Positions 1,537 through 54,706 of a DNA stretch of 64,000 nucleotides are shown here, one piece after another. The notes below the pieces were generated by a model. That model made no database searches. It saw nothing but the letters and a program-made list of their open reading frames with translations, and was not told the origin of the DNA. This DNA comes from Vitreimonas sp. Lineage in GTDB: Bacteria; Patescibacteriota; Microgenomatia; UBA1400; PJMF01. Made by a program: the position numbers and the translations under genes. The DNA lies in NCBI GenBank assembly GCA_035627515.1, contig DASPLQ010000012.1:842331-906330 (forward strand), given 5' to 3'. Numbering within the stretch: the stretch's first letter is position 1; each line of letters starts with the position of its first letter.

Positions 1537-1554
1537 AGTTTTAATTGAGTTTTT

Positions 1555-1587
1555 AAAAGCCCCTGCCGTGAAGGTGAGGGGCTTTTT
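1555..1587 (+). terminator. Rho-independent terminator after adk
   Basis: AAAAGCCCCT-(12-nt loop)-AGGGGCTTTTT: a perfect 10-bp GC-rich stem followed by a T-run, 19 nt after the adk stop codon. Confidence 0.75.
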
Positions 1588-1708
1588 AGTGGTCTGCGAT
1601 ATTTTTTGTCTTAAACTTGCAGAGGGTAAATTTGATATAAGTTTACACACCTTCATAGGTAATTACTTTAGAAGTGTATCTGGACAGTGTCCATTGTGTA
1701 CAACATGC

Positions 1709-1778
1709 ACATTTTGACTGTAATGACGTGCATCCAGATGAGCTTCTAAACAGCGAGAAAGTAAGGTCAGGGGGGGTG
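1709..1778 (+). promoter_or_regulatory. Copy 1 of a conserved intergenic element (TTTTGACTGTAATGAC...CTTCT...AAGTAAGG...GGGGG)
   Basis: Aligns by eye with 36987..37046; the 16-nt identical core is at 1712-1727. Confidence 0.4.
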
Positions 1779-1812
1779 GTTTGATATAATATGTTAAATA
1801 AGGGGAAAATAT

Positions 1813-2034
1813 ATGACAAAAGAATACGGTAAAACACCAGTAGATTTCGACCAATTACTAAAGAATTCAGAGGCGAAATTTCAAAGATATTTCGAGTTAT
1901 TGAATCTTTTTGATCTTCATGGCACTGCTGAAGAAAAAGCAGAAGCGCAAACTTTGATAGCTGCTCATGATCCTGAAAAAATATTTAACTTTTTAATAAG
2001 AATTGAGCAGCGCGTTAAAGAAGCCAACAAATAA
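1813..2034 (+). CDS. Hypothetical small protein (73 aa) inserted between adk and map
   Basis: Intact ORF with a strong SD (AAGGGGAAAATAT-ATG). Charged, helical-looking, no recognisable family. Confidence 0.55.
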   Translation: MTKEYGKTPVDFDQLLKNSEAKFQRYFELLNLFDLHGTAEEKAEAQTLIAAHDPEKIFNFLIRIEQRVKEANK

Positions 2035-2037
2035 TCT

Positions 2038-2781: not shown

Positions 2782-2796
2782 GGTATAATCCGCCCC

Positions 2797-3936
2797 ATGT
2801 CAGGTCAAACTGAAAAAGCCACCGTTCCATTAGAGCGGACCCAGCCTCATTTCAATCGTGAATTATTAGGTTTTAATACCTTGGGTATAAAGCAAATGAA
2901 GATTGGCAGTGACCAACTTAAAACAGTTGCTGATGCGCCAAAATTGGAGAAGCTCTTCACTATTATCAATATTATAGATTTAGTAACTCAGCTTGGTCCT
3001 TTTTTAGAGCTAGCTATTAAAAAAAATGGTGTCTTGACCATTAAAGAAATAGAGCAATTCCTACCGACCTTTTTAAAATTGCTTCGTTTTTCTGATATTA
3101 AGGATGTAATTCGTTTAGATCACAAAACTAAAAATCAATTAGAACTAATTGAGGGCGCTTTTCTCTTGCCGTTTATTCCAGGTTTGTTAATGTTTTGCTT
3201 AGTACTTAATTACACAGAGAATATTGCATATGTTTGTTGTTTACCAGCTATATTATCTACAGTACCAGCGATGGCGATCGGAATGCTGGCAGAGTCTAAA
3301 AAAGAACAGAAAGTGAGTCAGGCTATTCAACAGTATTTACCACAAGGCTTAAATAAGCTAGCAGAAGCATTAAGTCAATTTACACACACAGAAGCTGTGA
3401 ATGAGATCATGAAGAGGTTTCCCAACCCGCGTCAAGCTTTATCAAACGATACACATCGATTGTTAACAAAAATAATTTCCACACCAAATTTAAATCAAAA
3501 AAAATTCATAGAGATAATGTGTAACGAATTTAACCTTATGATTTACCAAAGGAATTTGCGTTCAGAGTCAAATGAATACCCCTTTTTGAGTAGCATCATA
3601 AAGTTGTTCCCCAATGTTGAAAGTATGGTAATTAAGAAGCTTCCTGACTTTAAGGTTATTTTAGCTGCTCCAGACATTATGGAAGCCCTAGCGTGTGTTG
3701 CTAATAGACCAAATGAGCATGTTCGCCACTTAGTCCATCGATGGCGAAATGAATGGTCTCTTAAAGGTTATGTAAGGGACGTCACTGAGGAAAAATTTTC
3801 AACAGTAAGCTTTGGTTTAAATAACTTAGCTAAAGGGGCACTTCTGGCTCTTCCCGACGATACTCAAAAAGTTACCACTCAAGTTGAAGAATTAATTAAT
3901 CGCCTTCAAGCTGCTGCAGACCCCAACAGCAATTAG
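2797..3936 (+). CDS. Hypothetical protein (379 aa), AT-rich insertion in the ribosomal cluster
   Basis: Long intact ORF between map and infA with no recognisable domain. Local GC (~30%) is clearly below the flanking ribosomal genes. One hydrophobic segment (CCLPAILSTVPAMAIGML). Confidence 0.6.
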   Translation: MSGQTEKATVPLERTQPHFNRELLGFNTLGIKQMKIGSDQLKTVADAPKLEKLFTIINIIDLVTQLGPFLELAIKKNGVLTIKEIEQFLPTFLKLLRFSDIKDVIRLDHKTKNQLELIEGAFLLPFIPGLLMFCLVLNYTENIAYVCCLPAILSTVPAMAIGMLAESKKEQKVSQAIQQYLPQGLNKLAEALSQFTHTEAVNEIMKRFPNPRQALSNDTHRLLTKIISTPNLNQKKFIEIMCNEFNLMIYQRNLRSESNEYPFLSSIIKLFPNVESMVIKKLPDFKVILAAPDIMEALACVANRPNEHVRHLVHRWRNEWSLKGYVRDVTEEKFSTVSFGLNNLAKGALLALPDDTQKVTTQVEELINRLQAAADPNSN

Positions 3937-3970
3937 CCTTTTAGCCCCCTTTCTGCTATAATTACCAGAT

Positions 3971-4300
3971 ATGGGTAAAGTTCAAGAACATAAACGCGCT
4001 GCCAAAGCTAAACGCCAAGTAGATTTAACGAGTGATTCAGCCGATCGAGACGATCGCTTCGAAGTCGAAGGTATTGTTGAAGATTGTTTACCCAACACCA
4101 TGTTTCGCGTCAAAGTCACCTCGAGTCCAGTTCCCCAGATGGTGGGCCGTACTTTGATTGGTACCTTAGCTGGAAAGATGCGTTTATTCCGGATTCGCGT
4201 TATGCCAGGCGACGGCGTCAAGGGTTATGTCAGTAAATATGACCTCGAAAAGTGTAAAATTACCTTTAGATCAGCAAAAAGAGAGTCGCAGTCAATTTGA
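3971..4300 (+). CDS. infA: Translation initiation factor IF-1 with an N-terminal ~35-aa basic extension
   Basis: Core VEGIVEDCLPNTMFRVKV...GKMRLFRIRVMPGDGV...YDLEKCKITFR matches the IF-1 S1-fold. The extra Lys/Arg-rich N-terminus and an internal insertion are unusual. Confidence 0.85.
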   Translation: MGKVQEHKRAAKAKRQVDLTSDSADRDDRFEVEGIVEDCLPNTMFRVKVTSSPVPQMVGRTLIGTLAGKMRLFRIRVMPGDGVKGYVSKYDLEKCKITFRSAKRESQSI

Positions 4301-5322: not shown

Positions 5323-5350
5323 TAATTACTTAATTACTAAATTACTCAAT
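5323..5350 (+). repeat. Three tandem octamers TAATTACT/TAATTACT/AAATTACT directly upstream of the rpsD ATG (no SD sequence present)
   Basis: Read directly at 5323-5346. The same AATTACTN octamer array recurs upstream of rmlB at 41599-41638 (minus strand). Confidence 0.6.
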
Positions 5351-8568: not shown

Positions 8569-10659
8569 ATGTTGCCTGTGGCCGTGTTTCCTTTGGTATC
8601 TCTAGACTTTTTAATCAGCACCTTCTTATTTGTGGTGGGGTGGGGTAGCTTGGTAGCTTTGAGTTGGTTGTGTCTGCAGTATTTATTTCCTGAGTTATCG
8701 ACAAAAGATACCAGCTATCGGTGGTTAATTACATCCGTGGTCGCTATTGTCGTCTTTACCGGTAGTGCTTATATCATGGGTTACGCTCAACTAAGGTGGT
8801 TACAGCTGTTGTATATTCCGGCAGGATTGAGAGCGGTGTATAAGTGTTTACTGGCTGTTAAGTGGCGTGAGAACTCAAAGTGGTTTGATTTTCAAAAAGG
8901 GGACTGGTGGAGTTGGGGAATTTCTATAGTGGGAATTCTCTGTCAGCTACTTACCATTAGTACCTCAGGCATTTTATCAAATAAAGGCCTGACTTTTTTT
9001 CGCCTCAATGGCTGGGATGGCATGTTGCACTTAAGTTTTGCTGAGTTTATGAAGGTTGAGTTTCCTCCTCAGCAGCCGGGAGCCGTAGGATTAGCTCTGA
9101 CTAATTATCATTACTGGGCAGATTTATTTGTGGCTGAGTTTAGTCGTTTATTTGCGGTACCAGTGATTCACGTTTATTTTCATTTTATACCTTTTGTCGT
9201 AGCAATTCTGATTGCTATAGCTGTATATCAGTTGGCAAAAGTCTGGGGTGGTTCAGTAGTAGTCAGAAGATGGGCACTCTTCTTTTATTTTTTTGCCGGC
9301 AATGCTACCTATCTGTTTATGTGGCTTTTGCACCAAGGATTCGGGTGGAACTCACCAGCCATTGATCACGGTTTACTGTTGTTTTTAAACATGCCGCAAG
9401 CTTTTGCGAGGTTGGGTTTATTGACAGGTCTGATCTTAATTGCAGAATGGTTGCAAACGAAACAACTTAAGTGGCTGGTATTAAGTTGTATTATTTTAGC
9501 GAGTTTGTTTGGGTATAAAATTTACTTTGGTTTATTTGGAGCAATCGGATTAGGAAGTTTACTTGCAGTCAAATTGACATACAGTTTTGTGACAGAACTT
9601 TATCAGCAGCGCAGTTTGAGGGCGTTTAAAACCTTTTTCGCTCATCACTATCCAGTGGTATTGATTGGGGTGCTTTTCGTGGTCATGTCTCTTGCCATCT
9701 TTTTACCACCTAATCGCCAAAGTGGAGGATTATTTTTAGCACCGCTGGTATGGCCCAAAATTTTATTGGGACAAACTAATTTAGATTGGAATGAGTGGTG
9801 GTTACGGCGACAAGTATATGAAGCTTATAGCAACACCCGTAACCTCATAATTATGGATGGCATTGCCATTGCTGTTTTCATGTTATCTATTTATGCCACC
9901 CGCCTGATTGGTATGTTGCCTACGCTCAATTTAATAAAGCGTGATTATGGTGCTTGGTTACTGTTAGTATGGTGGCCGATGTGGCTCTTCACTTTTTTAG
10001 GTATGAATACTTTGCAATCTTCGGGTGGAGCAAATGTTTTTAATTTTTTTATTGTAGCTTTGGTAGTAGGAGGTATTACTACCGCGTTTTGGATAGAAAA
10101 AGTGCTGCGCTGGCCGATGTGGTTGAGCTGGCCGTTACTGATGATAGTTGTGCTTATCTCTTTACCTCGCCCGCTCCAGGATACGTATTTGTTTATAAAA
10201 AGTGCGGCGGTAGGCGAGGAATCCTTAGTGATTTCACCTGATGAGTTAAAAGCCCTGAGTTTTATTAAAACAGCTACTCCCCGCCAGGCTGTTATTCAGA
10301 CGCATCTTAAGAATCATATTGATGCCGAGACGCCATATGGTTCGTACCTTAGTCAGCGTTATTCGTATGTCAGTGGACGGGGTATATTACGTAGTCACAA
10401 CCAACCCGTCACTGAACGCGAGGCTGTGTTATTAGATTTAAGTATGCCTAGTTTGAAGATGAGTTTAGGAGAACGTTTAGTTCATGCCGGCATTGATTAT
10501 TACATAGTCAGAAAAGACAAAAATAATTTCGAACAACTGTGGTTTCCTTGGCAGTATGCTCTACAAGAAGGAGTAGAGGTGGTTTATCAAAATGAGACGG
10601 TGACAGTAGTTAAACCACGGTTACAGGCGGCTGCTACACGTTTTGTGTGTGGCAATTAA
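8569..10659 (+). CDS. Large polytopic membrane protein (696 aa, >12 predicted TM) with a ~200-aa C-terminal soluble domain; possibly a GT-C-like glycosyltransferase or polymerase
   Basis: Hydrophobicity pattern read from the translation; no unambiguous family motif. Confidence 0.45.
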   Translation: MLPVAVFPLVSLDFLISTFLFVVGWGSLVALSWLCLQYLFPELSTKDTSYRWLITSVVAIVVFTGSAYIMGYAQLRWLQLLYIPAGLRAVYKCLLAVKWRENSKWFDFQKGDWWSWGISIVGILCQLLTISTSGILSNKGLTFFRLNGWDGMLHLSFAEFMKVEFPPQQPGAVGLALTNYHYWADLFVAEFSRLFAVPVIHVYFHFIPFVVAILIAIAVYQLAKVWGGSVVVRRWALFFYFFAGNATYLFMWLLHQGFGWNSPAIDHGLLLFLNMPQAFARLGLLTGLILIAEWLQTKQLKWLVLSCIILASLFGYKIYFGLFGAIGLGSLLAVKLTYSFVTELYQQRSLRAFKTFFAHHYPVVLIGVLFVVMSLAIFLPPNRQSGGLFLAPLVWPKILLGQTNLDWNEWWLRRQVYEAYSNTRNLIIMDGIAIAVFMLSIYATRLIGMLPTLNLIKRDYGAWLLLVWWPMWLFTFLGMNTLQSSGGANVFNFFIVALVVGGITTAFWIEKVLRWPMWLSWPLLMIVVLISLPRPLQDTYLFIKSAAVGEESLVISPDELKALSFIKTATPRQAVIQTHLKNHIDAETPYGSYLSQRYSYVSGRGILRSHNQPVTEREAVLLDLSMPSLKMSLGERLVHAGIDYYIVRKDKNNFEQLWFPWQYALQEGVEVVYQNETVTVVKPRLQAAATRFVCGN

Positions 10660-11453: not shown

Positions 11454-11456
11454 CTC

Positions 11457-12257
11457 TTATTGTCCGGTAGCTTCATAACCACTGAGGCCTTTTTTCCAAG
11501 CTCGGTGGGCTAACCACCAGCTTAATACTGTCCAAAAAGCTAATCCAAATGAATAAAGGTAGATTTGACCCAGATCTAAACGTTGTAAAAATAACTGAAT
11601 TTGCACATATGAAAAGTAAGGAAAAGGGGTCAATAAAATGAGTTGCTGGATGGCAGTAGGAAAGATATCCAGAGGATACAGTTTGCCAGCGGTGAAATCA
11701 AGAAACATAAAAAATAAAAATTTTGGCCCCCAGCTATCTGGCGTCCAAAACCCTAAGGTCCCAAATAAGATGGTGATGTAAAAGTGAATTAGAATTCCAG
11801 CTAGAACCCACAGAGAAAATAATAAAATGATACCAAGACTAGGAATGAGTAAGCTGGGTTTAAAAATTAACCATAAAATACCTATTTCGAGGCAGCTAAA
11901 AACCGCATTTTTGAGTTTGTCTGCAGCTTCCACAGCGCCAAAAGATAAAAACAATTTTTCTGGTTTTAAAAAATGGTGGGTAATACCTCCTGAGTAAATT
12001 TCGCCTGCTAAGCCATGTAGGCTACTCGCCAAAATTAGGCTTTGCAGTAGAGAAATCAATAATACATATCCTGCCATTTCTGATTGAGTATAGCCAAAGG
12101 CAGAAGCTTGCGAATTGAAAATCACGTTCCAGACAGTTAGGGCCATGACTGTAGAAAGAAACTGTCGGAAGCGCCAAATAAATAAGCTCGTACGGTAAAC
12201 GAAACTATTTTGCCACGCTAACTTAAAAATGTACCAATACTTAATCATGAGAACCAT
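11457..12257 (-). CDS. ABC-2-type transporter permease (pair A, first member)
   Basis: Multi-TM; C-terminus GYEATGQ resembles the HSYESTGI end of 14122..14904. I take the start at the internal Met (MVLMIKYWYIF), which avoids overlap with the upstream ATPase. Confidence 0.55.
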   Translation of the reverse strand: MVLMIKYWYIFKLAWQNSFVYRTSLFIWRFRQFLSTVMALTVWNVIFNSQASAFGYTQSEMAGYVLLISLLQSLILASSLHGLAGEIYSGGITHHFLKPEKLFLSFGAVEAADKLKNAVFSCLEIGILWLIFKPSLLIPSLGIILLFSLWVLAGILIHFYITILFGTLGFWTPDSWGPKFLFFMFLDFTAGKLYPLDIFPTAIQQLILLTPFPYFSYVQIQLFLQRLDLGQIYLYSFGLAFWTVLSWWLAHRAWKKGLSGYEATGQ

Positions 12258-12270
12258 GTCTATATGCCAG

Positions 12271-23943: not shown

Positions 23944-24750
23944 CTACTGGAGTGCTACCGCCCAGAATACACCTCCTTCGCACCCACTGAATGAGCGGAG
24001 TGAAGGGTCTGGGGGCAAATCGTAATGACTTGCCGGTGACCAGATGAAAATTTGTCCCCAACCCAGGTGGTCAGCCTTGAGCGGGTAAGCAACATCTGCG
24101 GGAGTGCTAACCCGTGAAGCGTTGCTGCACCAGACCAGCCAGGTTGTCTGGAAAGGAAGGGTAAGCTCCGCCCCCTCCAAGCGGGTGGCATTTGCGACTG
24201 CCGCCTGAGTCTGGATTGCCTGTATTGCAGCAACCATTGCGTTTTGGGCTGCTTCATTGCTTCCAGCGTCCCAAACGCCTGACTGGGCTTGTCGGACGAA
24301 AATAGCTGCTAACGTGGATTGTCCGGCTGCAAGTCCACGTCCTTGTTCGTCGTATCCGAGGGCGACGATCCCTGTTGTCCCATTTGCAGCAGGGACTTCC
24401 TGCTGTGCAACTTGACCCTGTTGCGAGGGAAGAGCGGAGCCGCCGCTCATATCTGCTGCCGGTTGGTTATTCAGGGCGGCGACTGTGTTGTTACTCCCCG
24501 GAACAGGTGTGGACGCGGGGGTAGTAGCAACTGTCGGCGTAGCGTCCTTTGCTGTAATCGCTGCATAGGCTTGATCCCCCTGATCTTTAACAAAGGGAAT
24601 CATCATGAGCGTAAGCCCACAGCCCAGCAGTAACAGCGGGACGGCGCAACCGAAAAAGCAAGCGCATCCTATCAGATTATTTCCCAGCCAATAAATTGGC
24701 ATGAAGAGATAATCGAAGAATCCAAGCTCACTGTTACCTCTGTTTTCCAT
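23944..24750 (-). CDS. Membrane-anchored Ala/Gln/Thr-rich low-complexity protein (268 aa)
   Basis: Strong SD: GAGGAGG 7 nt upstream of the ATG. Two N-terminal hydrophobic segments, then an Ala/Gln/Gly/Pro-rich sequence, which explains the local ~58% GC. Confidence 0.6.
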   Translation of the reverse strand: MENRGNSELGFFDYLFMPIYWLGNNLIGCACFFGCAVPLLLLGCGLTLMMIPFVKDQGDQAYAAITAKDATPTVATTPASTPVPGSNNTVAALNNQPAADMSGGSALPSQQGQVAQQEVPAANGTTGIVALGYDEQGRGLAAGQSTLAAIFVRQAQSGVWDAGSNEAAQNAMVAAIQAIQTQAAVANATRLEGAELTLPFQTTWLVWCSNASRVSTPADVAYPLKADHLGWGQIFIWSPASHYDLPPDPSLRSFSGCEGGVFWAVALQ

Positions 24751-25270
24751 TAGTACCTCCTCACGGACTCGCTAGACCTAAATCGGCCATCGCTATCCGC
24801 ACCACAGTAAGCACAAAAAGTTATGCCCACGGTGATGCGGATAAATCCGCCAAGGAAGTTTTTTCAAACCTATATGCCTTGTTAAGGTACCCTTTATCTT
24901 TAAAGGTCAATTGGCCGAGGCCGCATGGCTTCATTGATAAAGTATCCTAGTTTTGCTGCTTCTTCATGTGTGCCGAGAAAGTGAGTCAGCGATGACTCGG
25001 TCCCGGCGGGACGTGTTTCTGCAGCGTGATATCTTTTTAGTGGGAAAATGTGAAAAAGAGATGGACGCTACAGACACAGCCTATTGCGTTTTAAAGAAGA
25101 CTTGGGCAGTCATTTTTCATCATATTTAATTGTAATAACTTTAGCATAAAAGGCCTATAATGTCAAGTATATGGGCCTAAATTAGGTATATTGGATAAGT
25201 ATTATATCATGGTGCACTCGAGGAAAGATCCTGATGAACTCAGATTAGGCATGAGTTACAATACAGCCCT

Positions 25271-27793: not shown

Positions 27794-29053
27794 TTAAGAG
27801 TTATTTGTTGGTTGTGTAAAAAACCTGCCAATAGCCCACATTATCAAGCTAATTGGCACTGCTGACCAGGTGATCATTTTTTGATGAAGCAAGACGCTGC
27901 CATCGAAGTTGCCGGCGTGGAAGTATGGTATGTATCGGTATAGCGAGGTAACTGAAAGCGTGATCAAGAAAATACTCCACCAGCGCGTCAGCTGAAATAA
28001 GGGTTTAGGAGTGGTTAAACTAGGGAAAAACGGCAGCCAGATGAGTGTCCAGGTCAAATACCAGGGGTGGAACTGTTGGGAGCGTAAGGTCAGGAGCGGG
28101 ATAAACATCAGTACGGAAGCCGCCACAGGCCACCAGGGTAAAAGAGATTTAAACGGCAGATTCTTGAAAAAGCTGCTGAGTAACAAGATGATCCAGATTG
28201 GAATCAAGACAATTGTAGCAAGTTTCATCGAGATGGAAAAAGCTAAGAGAACGATAGAAGCCAGAATTTTGAGCGCAGACGCAGTGAAATTTTTCTTGTT
28301 GAGACCAGTTAAAAGCAACAGTGAGCTAAGAGCAGGGACCATCATCCACAGGTCGTTATGAGAATTTGTGATGATCTCGAGGAGGACTAAAGGATTAAAG
28401 AGTACTATACAGATCCGCAAAGCATTTTCACTCTTTTTTAGGTACATCCACGCCAACAGCCACAGGCTGACCAAGCTAAAACCTCTAAACAAGAACCAAG
28501 TCAGCAGAAATTTCTCTTGACCAAGGTAGTACGGGATCAGGGACAAAGCTGTCCAGCCATAACCATATGGAGCTGGCGTGTGCGTGTTGTGCATAAACCG
28601 CGTCCAGTCATCATAGTAGTAATCCAAAGCCACTTTGACGTGGGGATTAGCCTGGTAGACTGCCACCATTTTGGCGTTAAAAATATAATTAAAAACGTCA
28701 TAAGACAGGGCATTATTAGCGAAAAGCAGAGGCAGAGTAAACAGACAGTAAGCTGAAAAAAGGAAGTATTTTGAGTAATTAAGTAATCGAGTCCGCCAGC
28801 TGGCGGATGAGTAATTGAGTGAATATATCAACCAGAAGTAACTTAGCCAGAGCGTGGATATTAAAGCTGCATAGGTTGGGATCAGTAGCTCACGATCATT
28901 GAAGAAGGTTTTCCACATGTACAGCTGGAAGCGCCAGTACGGAGTCCAGGAAGTCAGGATCAGATTAGGAGCGGTAAGGCTGTAAGAGAAAACGACGTAA
29001 ACCAGCAACAGAGCAAAGTAAAGACCGAGGCAGAAAATGATTTTTTTGCTCAT
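27794..29053 (-). CDS. Polytopic membrane protein (419 aa), GT-C-like (GT87/DUF2029-like?)
   Basis: ~10 TM segments; conserved-looking loop DYYYDDWTRFMHNTHTPAPYGYGW. Confidence 0.4.
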   Translation of the reverse strand: MSKKIIFCLGLYFALLLVYVVFSYSLTAPNLILTSWTPYWRFQLYMWKTFFNDRELLIPTYAALISTLWLSYFWLIYSLNYSSASWRTRLLNYSKYFLFSAYCLFTLPLLFANNALSYDVFNYIFNAKMVAVYQANPHVKVALDYYYDDWTRFMHNTHTPAPYGYGWTALSLIPYYLGQEKFLLTWFLFRGFSLVSLWLLAWMYLKKSENALRICIVLFNPLVLLEIITNSHNDLWMMVPALSSLLLLTGLNKKNFTASALKILASIVLLAFSISMKLATIVLIPIWIILLLSSFFKNLPFKSLLPWWPVAASVLMFIPLLTLRSQQFHPWYLTWTLIWLPFFPSLTTPKPLFQLTRWWSIFLITLSVTSLYRYIPYFHAGNFDGSVLLHQKMITWSAVPISLIMWAIGRFFTQPTNNS

Positions 29054-36904: not shown

Positions 36905-36986
36905 ATTTATGTGTAATTAATACGCACAAGAATGAAGTATGCTCCTCAAACAAAAAAAATGCAAGCGGTGGGTTTGATGAAAAGGT

Positions 36987-37046
36987 ACGTTTTGACTGTA
37001 ATGACCTGTCACCAGAGTAACTTCTGAAGTAAGGGTTAAGGGGGAG
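36987..37046 (+). promoter_or_regulatory. Copy 2 of the conserved intergenic element
   Basis: Identical 16-mer TTTTGACTGTAATGAC at 36990-37005. CTTCT, AAGTAAGG and a G-run follow in the same order as copy 1. GGTGGGTTTGAT upstream matches GGTGGTTTGAT downstream of copy 1. Confidence 0.4.
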
Positions 37047-37221
37047 ATAGCTTAGATGCCTTTAAGAAGGTTCATTAGTAGGCGTGAAAAAAGGGTTTTA
37101 TCTTTTTTTGTTTGATAGTGGTTGCTCAAAAAGTGGATTTTGTCTGCGTTGTATGATTTTTGCCAATATTCATACAAGGAAAAAAACAAGAGCTTTAGTT
37201 TAAGGGTTCCCCAGTAAGGTG

Positions 37222-38814
37222 TTATTGAGCGACGCGTCGACAGTGCTCCACACTAATAATCCCAAACTGGTGTGGCTCGCCACAGCTCACCCCTTGGGTC
37301 ATTTCCGCATACCAAGGATCAAAGAAAATAGTTTTAGTGCCGTGAAAGGGTTCATAAAGCAAAAAGTATTCTTGATGTTTAGCCTCAACTTGAAAATCAA
37401 CTGGCCTCTCGCCTTGGGTGCGAGCCAGCCATTCATTGAGATATTGATAATTGATGGGCACCAAATTTGGCACTCGGGCGGCGATGGCAATCGGCTCGGT
37501 AGTGGTCATAGTGCGGATGTTACGAAGAGCTCGGAGTTGATGCCCAATGGTGTACTGCAAGGTGCTGGGATGATAAATAGCACTGACGTAGTGCCAGGTT
37601 CCCAAACTCCACAACATGATCATGATGACGCTAGCTGTTTTACGCCACGGATAGCGATGTAAAGCAAAAATGAGGGCCATAATAATTGGTAAATAATGGG
37701 CAGTAATGTAGTAATTAAAGAAATAACCATAATTTCCCCGGTGAAGTAGCATGCCCACTAAGGGAGAAATCACCAACAACAGTACGAACCATTCATGTTT
37801 GGTTTTGCGAAGCTGCACCGCTAAGTAGGTTAGGAGACTAATGACCAACCAGACCCCAAGTTTAGAAAGAGTCTGTAAAGCAAATAATGTGTTTTGGAGC
37901 TCAGCAAACATCAGGAGTGGTCGCTCACGCCAAATCTGCATTAAGGGGACTTGTTTAGATGTATCTGACATTTCTTTTAGCAAAGAGTTGGTCATCAAAA
38001 ATTGATTCCGGAACTCAAATAAGGCTTGGGGGGCTACCGTGACAGCAAAAGCTACACACCCGATGATGAGCGTTTGCCACGAGAAAATGGATGAAGCTTT
38101 GGTCTGTGTCCACCGATTTCGAATCAGCGTATATAGTGGAGAATGAATAAATACCCACCAGCCCACTACCGGAGCTAAAAAGATGGCGTAGGCAAACTCT
38201 GTTTGTAAACTCAGGCCATAGCAAAAAAGGCCCAGTGCCAGCCACAGTGGTTGCCAGCGGCTAGAGCGGATCGAGGTGAATAACGACCATGTCATCAGAA
38301 TTAACACTGGAGCTACCCACGAAGGGTTCCAGATGTTTCGGGCTTGGCTTAAGGCACCAGGGGTGAGAGCAAATAAAACGAGTGCTAACCATGCTAGATA
38401 AGGCTTAACAAATGGTTTGAGGGTGTAATATAAAACCGGCAAAGTCGCTACGATAATAAACATTTGCCATATGACCACCCCGATGGGGCTGCCATTACTG
38501 ATAATGAACCCAGGCAGCAAGGCATAATAGAAAAAGGGTCCTAAGAAAAAGCCAGGTAAGCCAGTAGTCGGCCCAATCAAGGTCACGTCGCCGCGGGTGA
38601 TTTGTTGCAAGACATACATGTCTCGACCTTGGTCATAACTAAAAATCATGAGTTCGGAGATGTTGTAAACTCGAAGCAAAAAGGCGGCCAGACAGAGAGC
38701 CAAGAGAAGTAAGTTTTCACGCGTGAAAAGTGAAGACAGTTTATTGAGCATAGGTGCTGGCGACTTCGGCCAGGGCTTCTTTAATACTATGAAGTTTGAA
38801 ATCGAGTTGGCCAA
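37222..38814 (-). CDS. ArnT/PMT-like GT-C membrane glycosyltransferase (about 510-530 aa)
   Basis: ~12 TM segments; first loop FSYDQGRDMYVLQQITRGDVTLIGPTTGLPGFFLGPFFYY, paralogous to 29844..31373. The start may be the internal Met at ~38751. Confidence 0.55.
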   Translation of the reverse strand: MANSISNFIVLKKPWPKSPAPMLNKLSSLFTRENLLLLALCLAAFLLRVYNISELMIFSYDQGRDMYVLQQITRGDVTLIGPTTGLPGFFLGPFFYYALLPGFIISNGSPIGVVIWQMFIIVATLPVLYYTLKPFVKPYLAWLALVLFALTPGALSQARNIWNPSWVAPVLILMTWSLFTSIRSSRWQPLWLALGLFCYGLSLQTEFAYAIFLAPVVGWWVFIHSPLYTLIRNRWTQTKASSIFSWQTLIIGCVAFAVTVAPQALFEFRNQFLMTNSLLKEMSDTSKQVPLMQIWRERPLLMFAELQNTLFALQTLSKLGVWLVISLLTYLAVQLRKTKHEWFVLLLVISPLVGMLLHRGNYGYFFNYYITAHYLPIIMALIFALHRYPWRKTASVIMIMLWSLGTWHYVSAIYHPSTLQYTIGHQLRALRNIRTMTTTEPIAIAARVPNLVPINYQYLNEWLARTQGERPVDFQVEAKHQEYFLLYEPFHGTKTIFFDPWYAEMTQGVSCGEPHQFGIISVEHCRRVAQ

Positions 38815-41575: not shown

Positions 41576-41598
41576 AAACGGATTATACTGTAAGTTAA

Positions 41599-41638
41599 GT
41601 AATTGAGTAATTGAGTAATTGAGTAAATAAGTAATTAG
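41599..41638 (-). repeat. Five tandem octamers (AATTACTY on the coding strand) in the rmlB 5' leader
   Basis: Plus strand reads GTAATTGA x3, then GTAAATAA, GTAATTAG; the same unit recurs upstream of rpsD at 5323-5350. Confidence 0.6.
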
Positions 41639-53791: not shown

Positions 53792-54706
53792 ATGGATCAT
53801 ATTTCCATTGTCATTGTTCATTACAACACCGATAAAGATACGCGTGAGTGTTTGCAGTCATTAGCGAAAATTGAGACACGTGGTTTCAATTATTCAGTAG
53901 TTGTGGTTGATAACGCATCAAAAAAACCTTTGCATCTCCCGCAACAAGTTTTGAACAAAAATATTGAAGTCTTGCGCAGTGAGTCTAATTTGGGTTTCAC
54001 AGGCGGCAATAATTTGGGTATTAAGTATGCCGTCGAAAAATATAACTCTGAGTTTGTGTTGTTATTAAACAGCGATACATTAGTAGCTCCAGAGTTTCTA
54101 TCTGAGTTGTATACCTGCGCTAAAAACAGTTCCAAGCGTGGCATCACAGTGCCCAAAATTTACTTTGCTAAAAACTATGAATTTCACCAAGATAGTTACA
54201 CTGCCACACAAAAGGGAAATGTACTATGGTTTGCGGGCGGTACGATTGATTGGACCACTCTCTCAGCATTTCACCGTGGCGTAGACGAGGTTGATCGCGG
54301 GCAGTTTAATCACTCCACAGACACTGACTTTGCCACGGGTTGTTGTATGCTCATTGCCCGTGAGGTACTGGAAACGATTGGTGGTTTTGATAATCGTTAT
54401 TTTCTGTATTTAGAAGACGTTGACCTGAGTATGCGAGCACGCCTCAACGGTTTTTCAGTCACTTTTTGTCCCAGTTCTCAAGTCTGGCATAAAAATGGGG
54501 GTTCCAGTGGTGGGTCGGGTTCTATTTTGCAACAGTACTATTTAGTTCGTAACAGGGTTTGGTTTGCATTTCGCTATGCTTCATGGCGAATTAAGTTAAC
54601 CACCATCAGATATGCTGCCCAGCTACTTTGGAGTGGCAATACTATCGAACGACGCGCTATGATAGATGTACTCTTTGGTCGCTTAGGTAAGCAACCAATT
54701 TTATAA
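53792..54706 (+). CDS. Family 2 glycosyltransferase
   Basis: ISIVIVHYNTDKDTRECLQSL...VVVVDNASK...LLLNSDTLV...YLEDVDLSMR are GT-A DxD-type motifs. Confidence 0.85.
   Translation: MDHISIVIVHYNTDKDTRECLQSLAKIETRGFNYSVVVVDNASKKPLHLPQQVLNKNIEVLRSESNLGFTGGNNLGIKYAVEKYNSEFVLLLNSDTLVAPEFLSELYTCAKNSSKRGITVPKIYFAKNYEFHQDSYTATQKGNVLWFAGGTIDWTTLSAFHRGVDEVDRGQFNHSTDTDFATGCCMLIAREVLETIGGFDNRYFLYLEDVDLSMRARLNGFSVTFCPSSQVWHKNGGSSGGSGSILQQYYLVRNRVWFAFRYASWRIKLTTIRYAAQLLWSGNTIERRAMIDVLFGRLGKQPIL

Follow-up and report, generated by a model that had tools for sequence, protein, structure and literature searches.

A short imperfect-palindromic sequence in two spacers of a Patescibacteria-like genome, possibly a lineage-specific intergenic repeat

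What is a short non-coding sequence that recurs, 35.3 kb further on, in a second spacer of the same genome, both times beside an orphan gene? The question is raised by two loci in the 64-kb stretch of DNA analysed here as a whole (the window). An earlier note on this DNA had drawn attention to them and offered four options: a small RNA, a cis-regulatory or riboswitch-like leader, the operator of a regulator or a miniature repeat family. The metagenome-assembled genome (MAG) carries the label Vitreimonas, which is an alphaproteobacterium. The nearest genomes as judged by the methionine aminopeptidase Map, as well as the organisation of the operons, are those of Patescibacteria, and the taxonomic label appears to be wrong.

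The identical 16-nt core, TTTTGACTGTAATGAC, is present at 1712-1727 and at 36990-37005, on the plus strand in both cases, and a third match is absent from the window even when three mismatches are allowed. By itself an exact repeat of this length is unremarkable, as simple arithmetic predicts some 0.5 direct pairs in 64 kb. The likeness goes beyond the core, however. The unit reads core, CCAGA-N4-CTTCT, AAGTAAGG and G-run, and the order of CTTCT, AAGTAAGG and the G-run reported earlier was recovered at both copies in an alignment with a single 10-nt indel. Copy 1 (1702-1776, plus strand) and copy 2 (36980-37044, plus strand) are identical at 48 of the 65 aligned positions, which bears out the claim of a conserved non-coding element, with a unit of approximately 65-75 nt. 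The indel corresponds to a 10-nt insertion, AAACAGCGAG, at 1748-1757 (plus strand) in copy 1, and a repeat finder lists the ungapped part (1702-1750 versus 36980-37028) as a direct repeat of 49 nt with 76% identity. With a profile built from the two copies, nhmmer returned copy 1 with E=8.5e-23 and copy 2 with E=4.1e-17. Over all pairs of intergenic sequences in the window the extended match is the top local alignment (score 19.5; runner-up 13.5), while 1000 shuffles of both spacers scored 9.3 +/- 1.15 and reached 16 at the most. A chance resemblance of two AT-rich spacers, which the expected frequency of a lone 16-mer might suggest, is refuted by this shuffled-spacer control; AAGTAAGG and the G-run trailing the core in a common order also speak against it, and we give it hardly any credence. 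No similarity was detected between the flanks of the two copies on either side of the shared unit. The similarity of the two spacers is real and sharply bounded.

The differences between copy 1 and copy 2 comprise 8 transitions, 9 transversions and the 10-nt indel, and involve all bases. The divergence looks to be without an obvious selective pattern, and the perfect run of 16 nt is borderline unusual given an overall identity of 74% (p=0.06). A template/variable pair of a diversity-generating retroelement (DGR) was considered and rejected: the substitutions are of mixed type and not confined to adenines. A tandem array of the CRISPR or TIGR kind was likewise discarded, no head-to-tail array being found at either locus.

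At the first locus, copy 1 is flanked by adk and by a gene of 73 codons, ORF73 (HYD35286.1; 1813-2034, plus strand), and map starts 3 nt after ORF73. The adk gene is followed by an intrinsic terminator at 1555-1590 (plus strand), a GC-rich hairpin with a subsequent UUUUU (-19.8 kcal/mol, z=-2.9). Pattern searches gave an extended -10 promoter, TGATATAAT, at 1782-1790 (plus strand), 6 nt past the G-run of copy 1, which from its sequence and position is likely to be the promoter of ORF73-map. A weaker promoter-like sequence, TGATATAAG, which has no final T in its -10 hexamer, is located upstream of the palindrome described below (1633-1641, plus strand). Judging from this arrangement, sense transcription of the element would come solely from TGATATAAG or from read-through. 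The earlier note had placed copy 1 in the 5' leader of ORF73. The element does lie upstream of this gene, but its placement in a leader is doubtful because the best promoter, TGATATAAT, is located downstream of it. Further examples of the TGnTATAAT form closely precede infA (3954) and other genes, and the form is present in relatives too. A near-leaderless arrangement, in which TGnTATAAT is followed after 1-3 nt by CCAG(A/G) and by an ATG within about 8 nt, was observed before infA and map; it is conserved, being present at 3954-3973 of the window and upstream of map or infA in the related loci L055, L056 and L093.

At the second locus, copy 2 is situated in a spacer of 317 nt between a GT-C-like gene and the 120-codon ORF120 (HYD35324.1; 36542-36904, minus strand), an orphan gene that is transcribed away from copy 2. 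Both genes are on the minus strand, and no plus-strand gene is present downstream of copy 2, as had been stated. The reading frame described there as a 6-codon ORF, MPLRRFI*, turned out to have 19 codons, MPLRRFISRREKRVLSFFV*, at 37056-37115, and its codon usage is not coding-like. The element has opposite orientations relative to the genes at the two loci: it is sense to adk and ORF73, and antisense to the GT-C-like gene and ORF120.

Two further ideas concern short motifs in or beside the shared sequence. The block GGTGG(G)TTTGAT, which lies on different sides of the two copies and had led to the suggestion of a circularly permuted unit, was indeed found at 1775 and 36967; at copy 1 it shares bases with TGATATAAT, the extended -10 promoter. 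A further occurrence, at 54380, falls within the coding sequence of a glycosyltransferase. The permutation idea rests on a short block that is in part a promoter motif and that occurs by chance in a coding region. The second idea, that the similarity stems from a duplicated sigma-70 promoter with TTGACT as its -35 hexamer, fails: there is no promoter call at the core of either locus, and no -10-like hexamer stands 16-18 nt from TTGACT (GATGAG and GAGTAA are found at 17 nt). An enrichment of TTTGACT in one of the relatives was traced to antisense codon bias and does not reflect promoters.

Searching the window with the two-copy profile and with a covariance model revealed nothing beyond copy 1, copy 2 and one partial copy. 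The latter, copy 1', is a decayed unit on the minus strand at about 1644-1716 that stands head-to-head with copy 1. It is the third-best match of the profile in the window (nhmmer E=0.6; cmsearch 10.9 bits). In a three-way alignment it has kept TnTTG..AATG from the core and CCAGA-N4-CTTCT-N-AAGTAA, and like copy 2 it does not have the 10-nt insertion. Because two units stand head-to-head, the locus contains an inverted repeat of 18 nt, the left arm of which, TTTAGAAGTGTATCTGGA, is at 1667-1684 and the right arm of which, TCCAGATGAGCTTCTAAA, lies within copy 1 at 1733-1750. The arms are 83% complementary and are separated by 48 nt. Their duplex has a calculated energy of -21.1 kcal/mol; none of 2000 shuffles and 0.14% of the windows of real sequence did as well. 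Folding of 1660-1756 gave -27.9 kcal/mol (z=-2.9) for the plus-strand RNA and -22.5 kcal/mol (z=-1.5) for the minus-strand RNA, the former being more stable because two of the three mismatches in the arms are G-U pairs on the plus strand.

A comparable hairpin is not evident at the second locus, where the region of copy 2 folds no better than shuffled sequence (z=+0.1). A segment at 36934-36944 (plus strand), GAAGTATGCTC, pairs with 37015-37024 in the minimum free energy fold and might be a vestigial left arm of copy 2, albeit one that is not statistically supported (duplex p=0.13-0.23). This outer stem, with its two compensatory-looking pairs, was set aside since the duplex does not rise above the controls.

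Some other repeats were seen in these and in further spacers. A 13-bp palindrome, TGGACAGTGTCCA, at 1681-1693 overlaps the inner end of the left arm at the first locus and has no counterpart in copy 2; its pairing in RNA competes with that of the long stem, and the DNA could be a putative dimer-binding site. A second intergenic repeat consists of tandem octamers, AGTAATTG or TAATTACT, in 3.5-4.9 copies at 5323-5350 and 41598-41636, in opposite orientation, and is also seen at 28808-28825. The octamer spacers form a long-range inverted pair of 43 nt with 81% complementarity, and GTAATTAC of the octamer repeat recurs at 1659-1666, beside copy 1.

Comparison with related genomes sets the first locus apart from theirs. 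In the closest relatives available, whose Map proteins are 73-76% identical, the gap between adk and map measures only 28 nt (L056), 3 nt (L057 and L058) or 2 nt (L094). Since adk abuts map in these genomes, 1537-2037 (plus strand) is an inserted segment; it holds the terminator, the promoter-like sites, ORF73 and the element, and the first locus is demonstrably inserted relative to the nearest relatives. Searches of 11 related loci, 115 kb of syntenic DNA in all, with the profile and the covariance model returned no copy of the element. One candidate from this comparison was the adk-map spacer of L093 (9925-9950), in which GAAGTAAGG and CGTTTTGAC are present; it was rejected, as the local alignment is not significant. 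These two sequences are 9-mers of copy 2 that appear in L093 in reverse order, and GAAGTAAGG spans the adk stop codon there; the adk gene of the window itself ends in AGAAGTAAAG.

In the ribosomal protein operon, the junctions between adk and map and between map and infA repeatedly hold different lineage-specific ORFs, which are mutually unrelated by blastp. In the window these are ORF73 (junction 1537-2037) and the orphan ORF379 (junction 2782-3970). In the relatives they are ORFs of 153, 228 and 355 amino acids without a Pfam family, together with a Fic gene, located at 9492-9953 in L026, at 9325-10011 and 11091-12158 in L092 and at 824-1282 in L055.

Synteny also settles the possibility that the two copies are the attL and attR repeats at the ends of an integrated element of 35 kb, with the 16-mer as the crossover core. 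The two direct repeats, 35.3 kb apart, do have a perfectly identical core inside more diverged flanks, in keeping with this possibility. To the right of copy 1, however, follow map, infA, rpsM, rpsK, rpsD, rpoA, rplQ, rplM and rpsI, which are contiguous with adk in the relatives. As this block of ribosomal protein genes and rpoA is syntenic with adk, the DNA between the copies belongs to the core chromosome rather than to an island, by which the att reading is refuted; we consider it scarcely credible.

Searches further afield gave no other occurrence of the element. The exact pattern TTGACTGTAATGAC-N6-CCAGA has 0 matches in 185,579 species genomes, and the TTGACTGTAATGAC core with a spacing of N4-9 has 25 matches in the JGI metagenomes, all of them in unrelated coding sequences. 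Three pattern scans of viral contigs yielded chance matches only, and there was no blastn match to the element in the plasmid and phage collections. The comparison with Rfam suggested earlier gave 0 matches at the gathering threshold when the whole window was searched against Rfam 15, and noise only around both copies at E<=10. Elsewhere in the window, two long stretches, 11454-12270 (817 nt) and 24634-25270 (637 nt), contain no ORF of at least 60 amino acids on a crude gene map; they gave no Rfam or tRNA match either.

These results bear on the reading of the element as a structured RNA, which would comprise, at copy 1, a cis leader of ORF73-map made from the weak upstream promoter and, at copy 2, a paralogous small or antisense RNA. 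The 16-nt core would then lie in a hairpin loop, the stems alternating between pairings. The higher stability of the plus-strand hairpin of copy 1 (the sense strand for ORF73) fits such a leader, and overlapping GAAG/CUUC segments in the first locus permit alternative pairings. Copy 2 keeps part of the core-flanking stem in register, with a single two-sided change, and the outer stem of that copy would carry two compensatory pairs, but copy 2 folds no better than shuffles and this outer stem is not significant. The consensus fold, derived from two sequences only, is weak (-4.2 kcal/mol, with the one two-sided change). Copy 1 has a strong terminator before it and the strong promoter TGATATAAT after it, a consensus scan found neither a plus-strand promoter nor a plus-strand terminator at copy 2, and there is neither a match in Rfam nor a homologue in the relatives. 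We regard a structured RNA of this type as unlikely. Riboswitches and other cis-regulatory leaders in Rfam do resemble the element in that they are located upstream of a gene and have conserved, single-stranded-looking blocks between possible helices; they differ from it in that the element has no Rfam match, a weak consensus fold, its main promoter downstream and no conservation found beyond the genome of the window, the syntenic loci of the relatives having been searched. On the same grounds the riboswitch-like leader proposed earlier is not supported. Nor is a stand-alone small RNA at copy 2, for which the consensus scan offered no plus-strand promoter or terminator.

The alternative of a cis-regulatory DNA site, in which the core would bind one regulator that controls the promoters of both orphan genes, draws on the spacing of the two copies. 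The core is exactly 86 nt away from both start codons, that of ORF73 (1727 to 1813) and that of ORF120 (36990 to 36904), and both copies are located upstream of likely promoters. The core contains a direct repeat, TGAC-N5-TGAC, the conserved positions cluster in it (p=0.06), and the 10-nt indel amounts to one helical turn, so that the blocks would still face the same side of the DNA. The 65-nt unit is asymmetric, however, and is inverted relative to the two genes, and its proximal edge is 8 nt from the putative -10 in one case but about 58 nt in the other. There is no adjacent regulator gene, the core is not a promoter of the sigma-70 type and no conservation is seen in the relatives. Nor do the products of the two genes offer a candidate: their predicted folds have no significant counterpart among solved structures, so that there is no evidence that either of them binds DNA. 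A shared operator seems to us an improbable, albeit not far-fetched, explanation.

Both orphan genes have coding-like codon usage (0.34 for ORF73 and 0.20 for ORF120, against 0.30 +/- 0.11 for the genes of the window). No homologues of either were found among 5.8 billion protein clusters, and neither has a Pfam or PHROG family or viral relatives. An exhaustive HMMER search with ORF73 returned only ankyrin or helical-repeat artefacts. ORF73 is predicted to be a three-helix bundle (pLDDT 86) and ORF120 a helix with a small sheet (pLDDT 74); neither predicted fold has a significant match among solved structures. The first 38 residues of ORF73 (1813-1926) resemble residues of about 463-493 of the GT-C-like ORF (37336-37428, minus strand), with 16 identities in 38 positions (G..PVDF...EAK.Q.YF.L..F.HGT; E=0.005 against the six-frame translation of the window). 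This match is in the reading frame of the GT-C-like gene, is inverted relative to the element and has no counterpart at the DNA level. The library-wide HMMER search with ORF73 gave no GT-C-like protein, and the likeness has no independent support.

Of the four options offered in the earlier note, the miniature repeat fits best, although the word family extrapolates from a window of 64 kb. The reading we favour, with a confidence a little short of even, is that of a lineage-specific, non-coding, imperfect-palindromic intergenic repeat of the ERIC, Correia or MITE kind. The inverted partial copy, the palindrome, the two orientations, the context of an insertion and the absence of a copy in the relatives all support it. 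At the first locus, a well-kept unit on the plus strand and a decayed unit on the minus strand together make up a palindrome of roughly 105 nt, which would form a long hairpin either in the DNA when single-stranded or in RNA transcribed across it. At the second locus a single good unit appears to persist, its partner being reduced to a vestige at best. The copies occupy terminator-promoter spacers beside orphan genes, and the unit may have spread by duplication or by a transposition-like insertion, either along with newly acquired genes or next to them. Expression would be affected only incidentally, if at all, by the hairpin, acting on the stability or processing of the transcript, or by the promoter sequence that adjoins the element; the element presumably does not sense a ligand.

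ERIC sequences, also known as IRUs, are non-coding, intergenic imperfect palindromes of about 100 nt that are found in either orientation and differ from copy to copy by internal insertions or deletions. The element resembles them in these respects and in its position in spacers between genes on the same strand. There is no sequence similarity to them, and the host here belongs to a different, Patescibacteria-like phylum; the window holds two to three copies, and copy 2 has lost practically all of its left half. Correia elements, the repeat-enclosed elements of Neisseria, are small hairpin-forming repeats near promoters that occur as insertions relative to related genomes and can form a long double-stranded RNA stem. 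Like these and other MITE-like sequences, the element adjoins promoters, lies within an insertion and could form such a stem, but its shared unit is not delimited by inverted arms, and neither a target-site duplication nor a cognate transposase has been identified. Repetitive extragenic palindromic (REP) sequences and BIMEs are likewise intergenic, palindromic and present in either orientation. REPs, in contrast, are 20-40 nt long, very numerous and linked to RAYT transposases. The features that the element does share with ERIC and REP sequences are an imperfect palindrome, an intergenic location and occurrence in either orientation relative to the flanking genes.

Several observations weigh against the repeat reading. 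The window contains just two good copies and one decayed one. On the right, the similarity between the copies carries on beyond the arm of the inverted repeat and takes in AAGTAAGG and the G-run; on the left, it already ends deep within the arm. The arms do not delimit the unit and are therefore unlike the terminal inverted repeats of a classical MITE, and the element is no classical MITE. At its boundaries there is no clear target-site duplication, AGGT and AGAAGTAA recurring ambiguously, and no linked transposase or RAYT gene is known. The hairpin of copy 2 is not significantly stable by either of the measures given above, and the equal distances of 86 nt from core to start codon hint at a regulatory role.

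A more elaborate version, to which we assign a rather slim chance, holds that the element is a portable expression adaptor of a hitherto undescribed kind, composed of hairpin plus promoter, that travels with newly acquired orphan genes or recruits them into the conserved operons of Patescibacteria, the core acting in RNA. As copy 2 is antisense to the GT-C/ORF120 mRNA and copy 1 is sense to that of ORF73/map, the two mRNAs could then pair through the core.

In conclusion, the element is ordinary in kind, new in sequence and lineage-restricted as far as has been searched; its function is putative. At present it is a modest, lineage-restricted curiosity. If it were an operator or an RNA, it would define a very small regulon made up of orphan genes. 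Should the whole genome show the palindromic repeat to be a true family, it would be one of the very few small dispersed elements so far described for Patescibacteria, with their reduced genomes, and would mark the entry points of lineage-specific genes into otherwise rigid operons.
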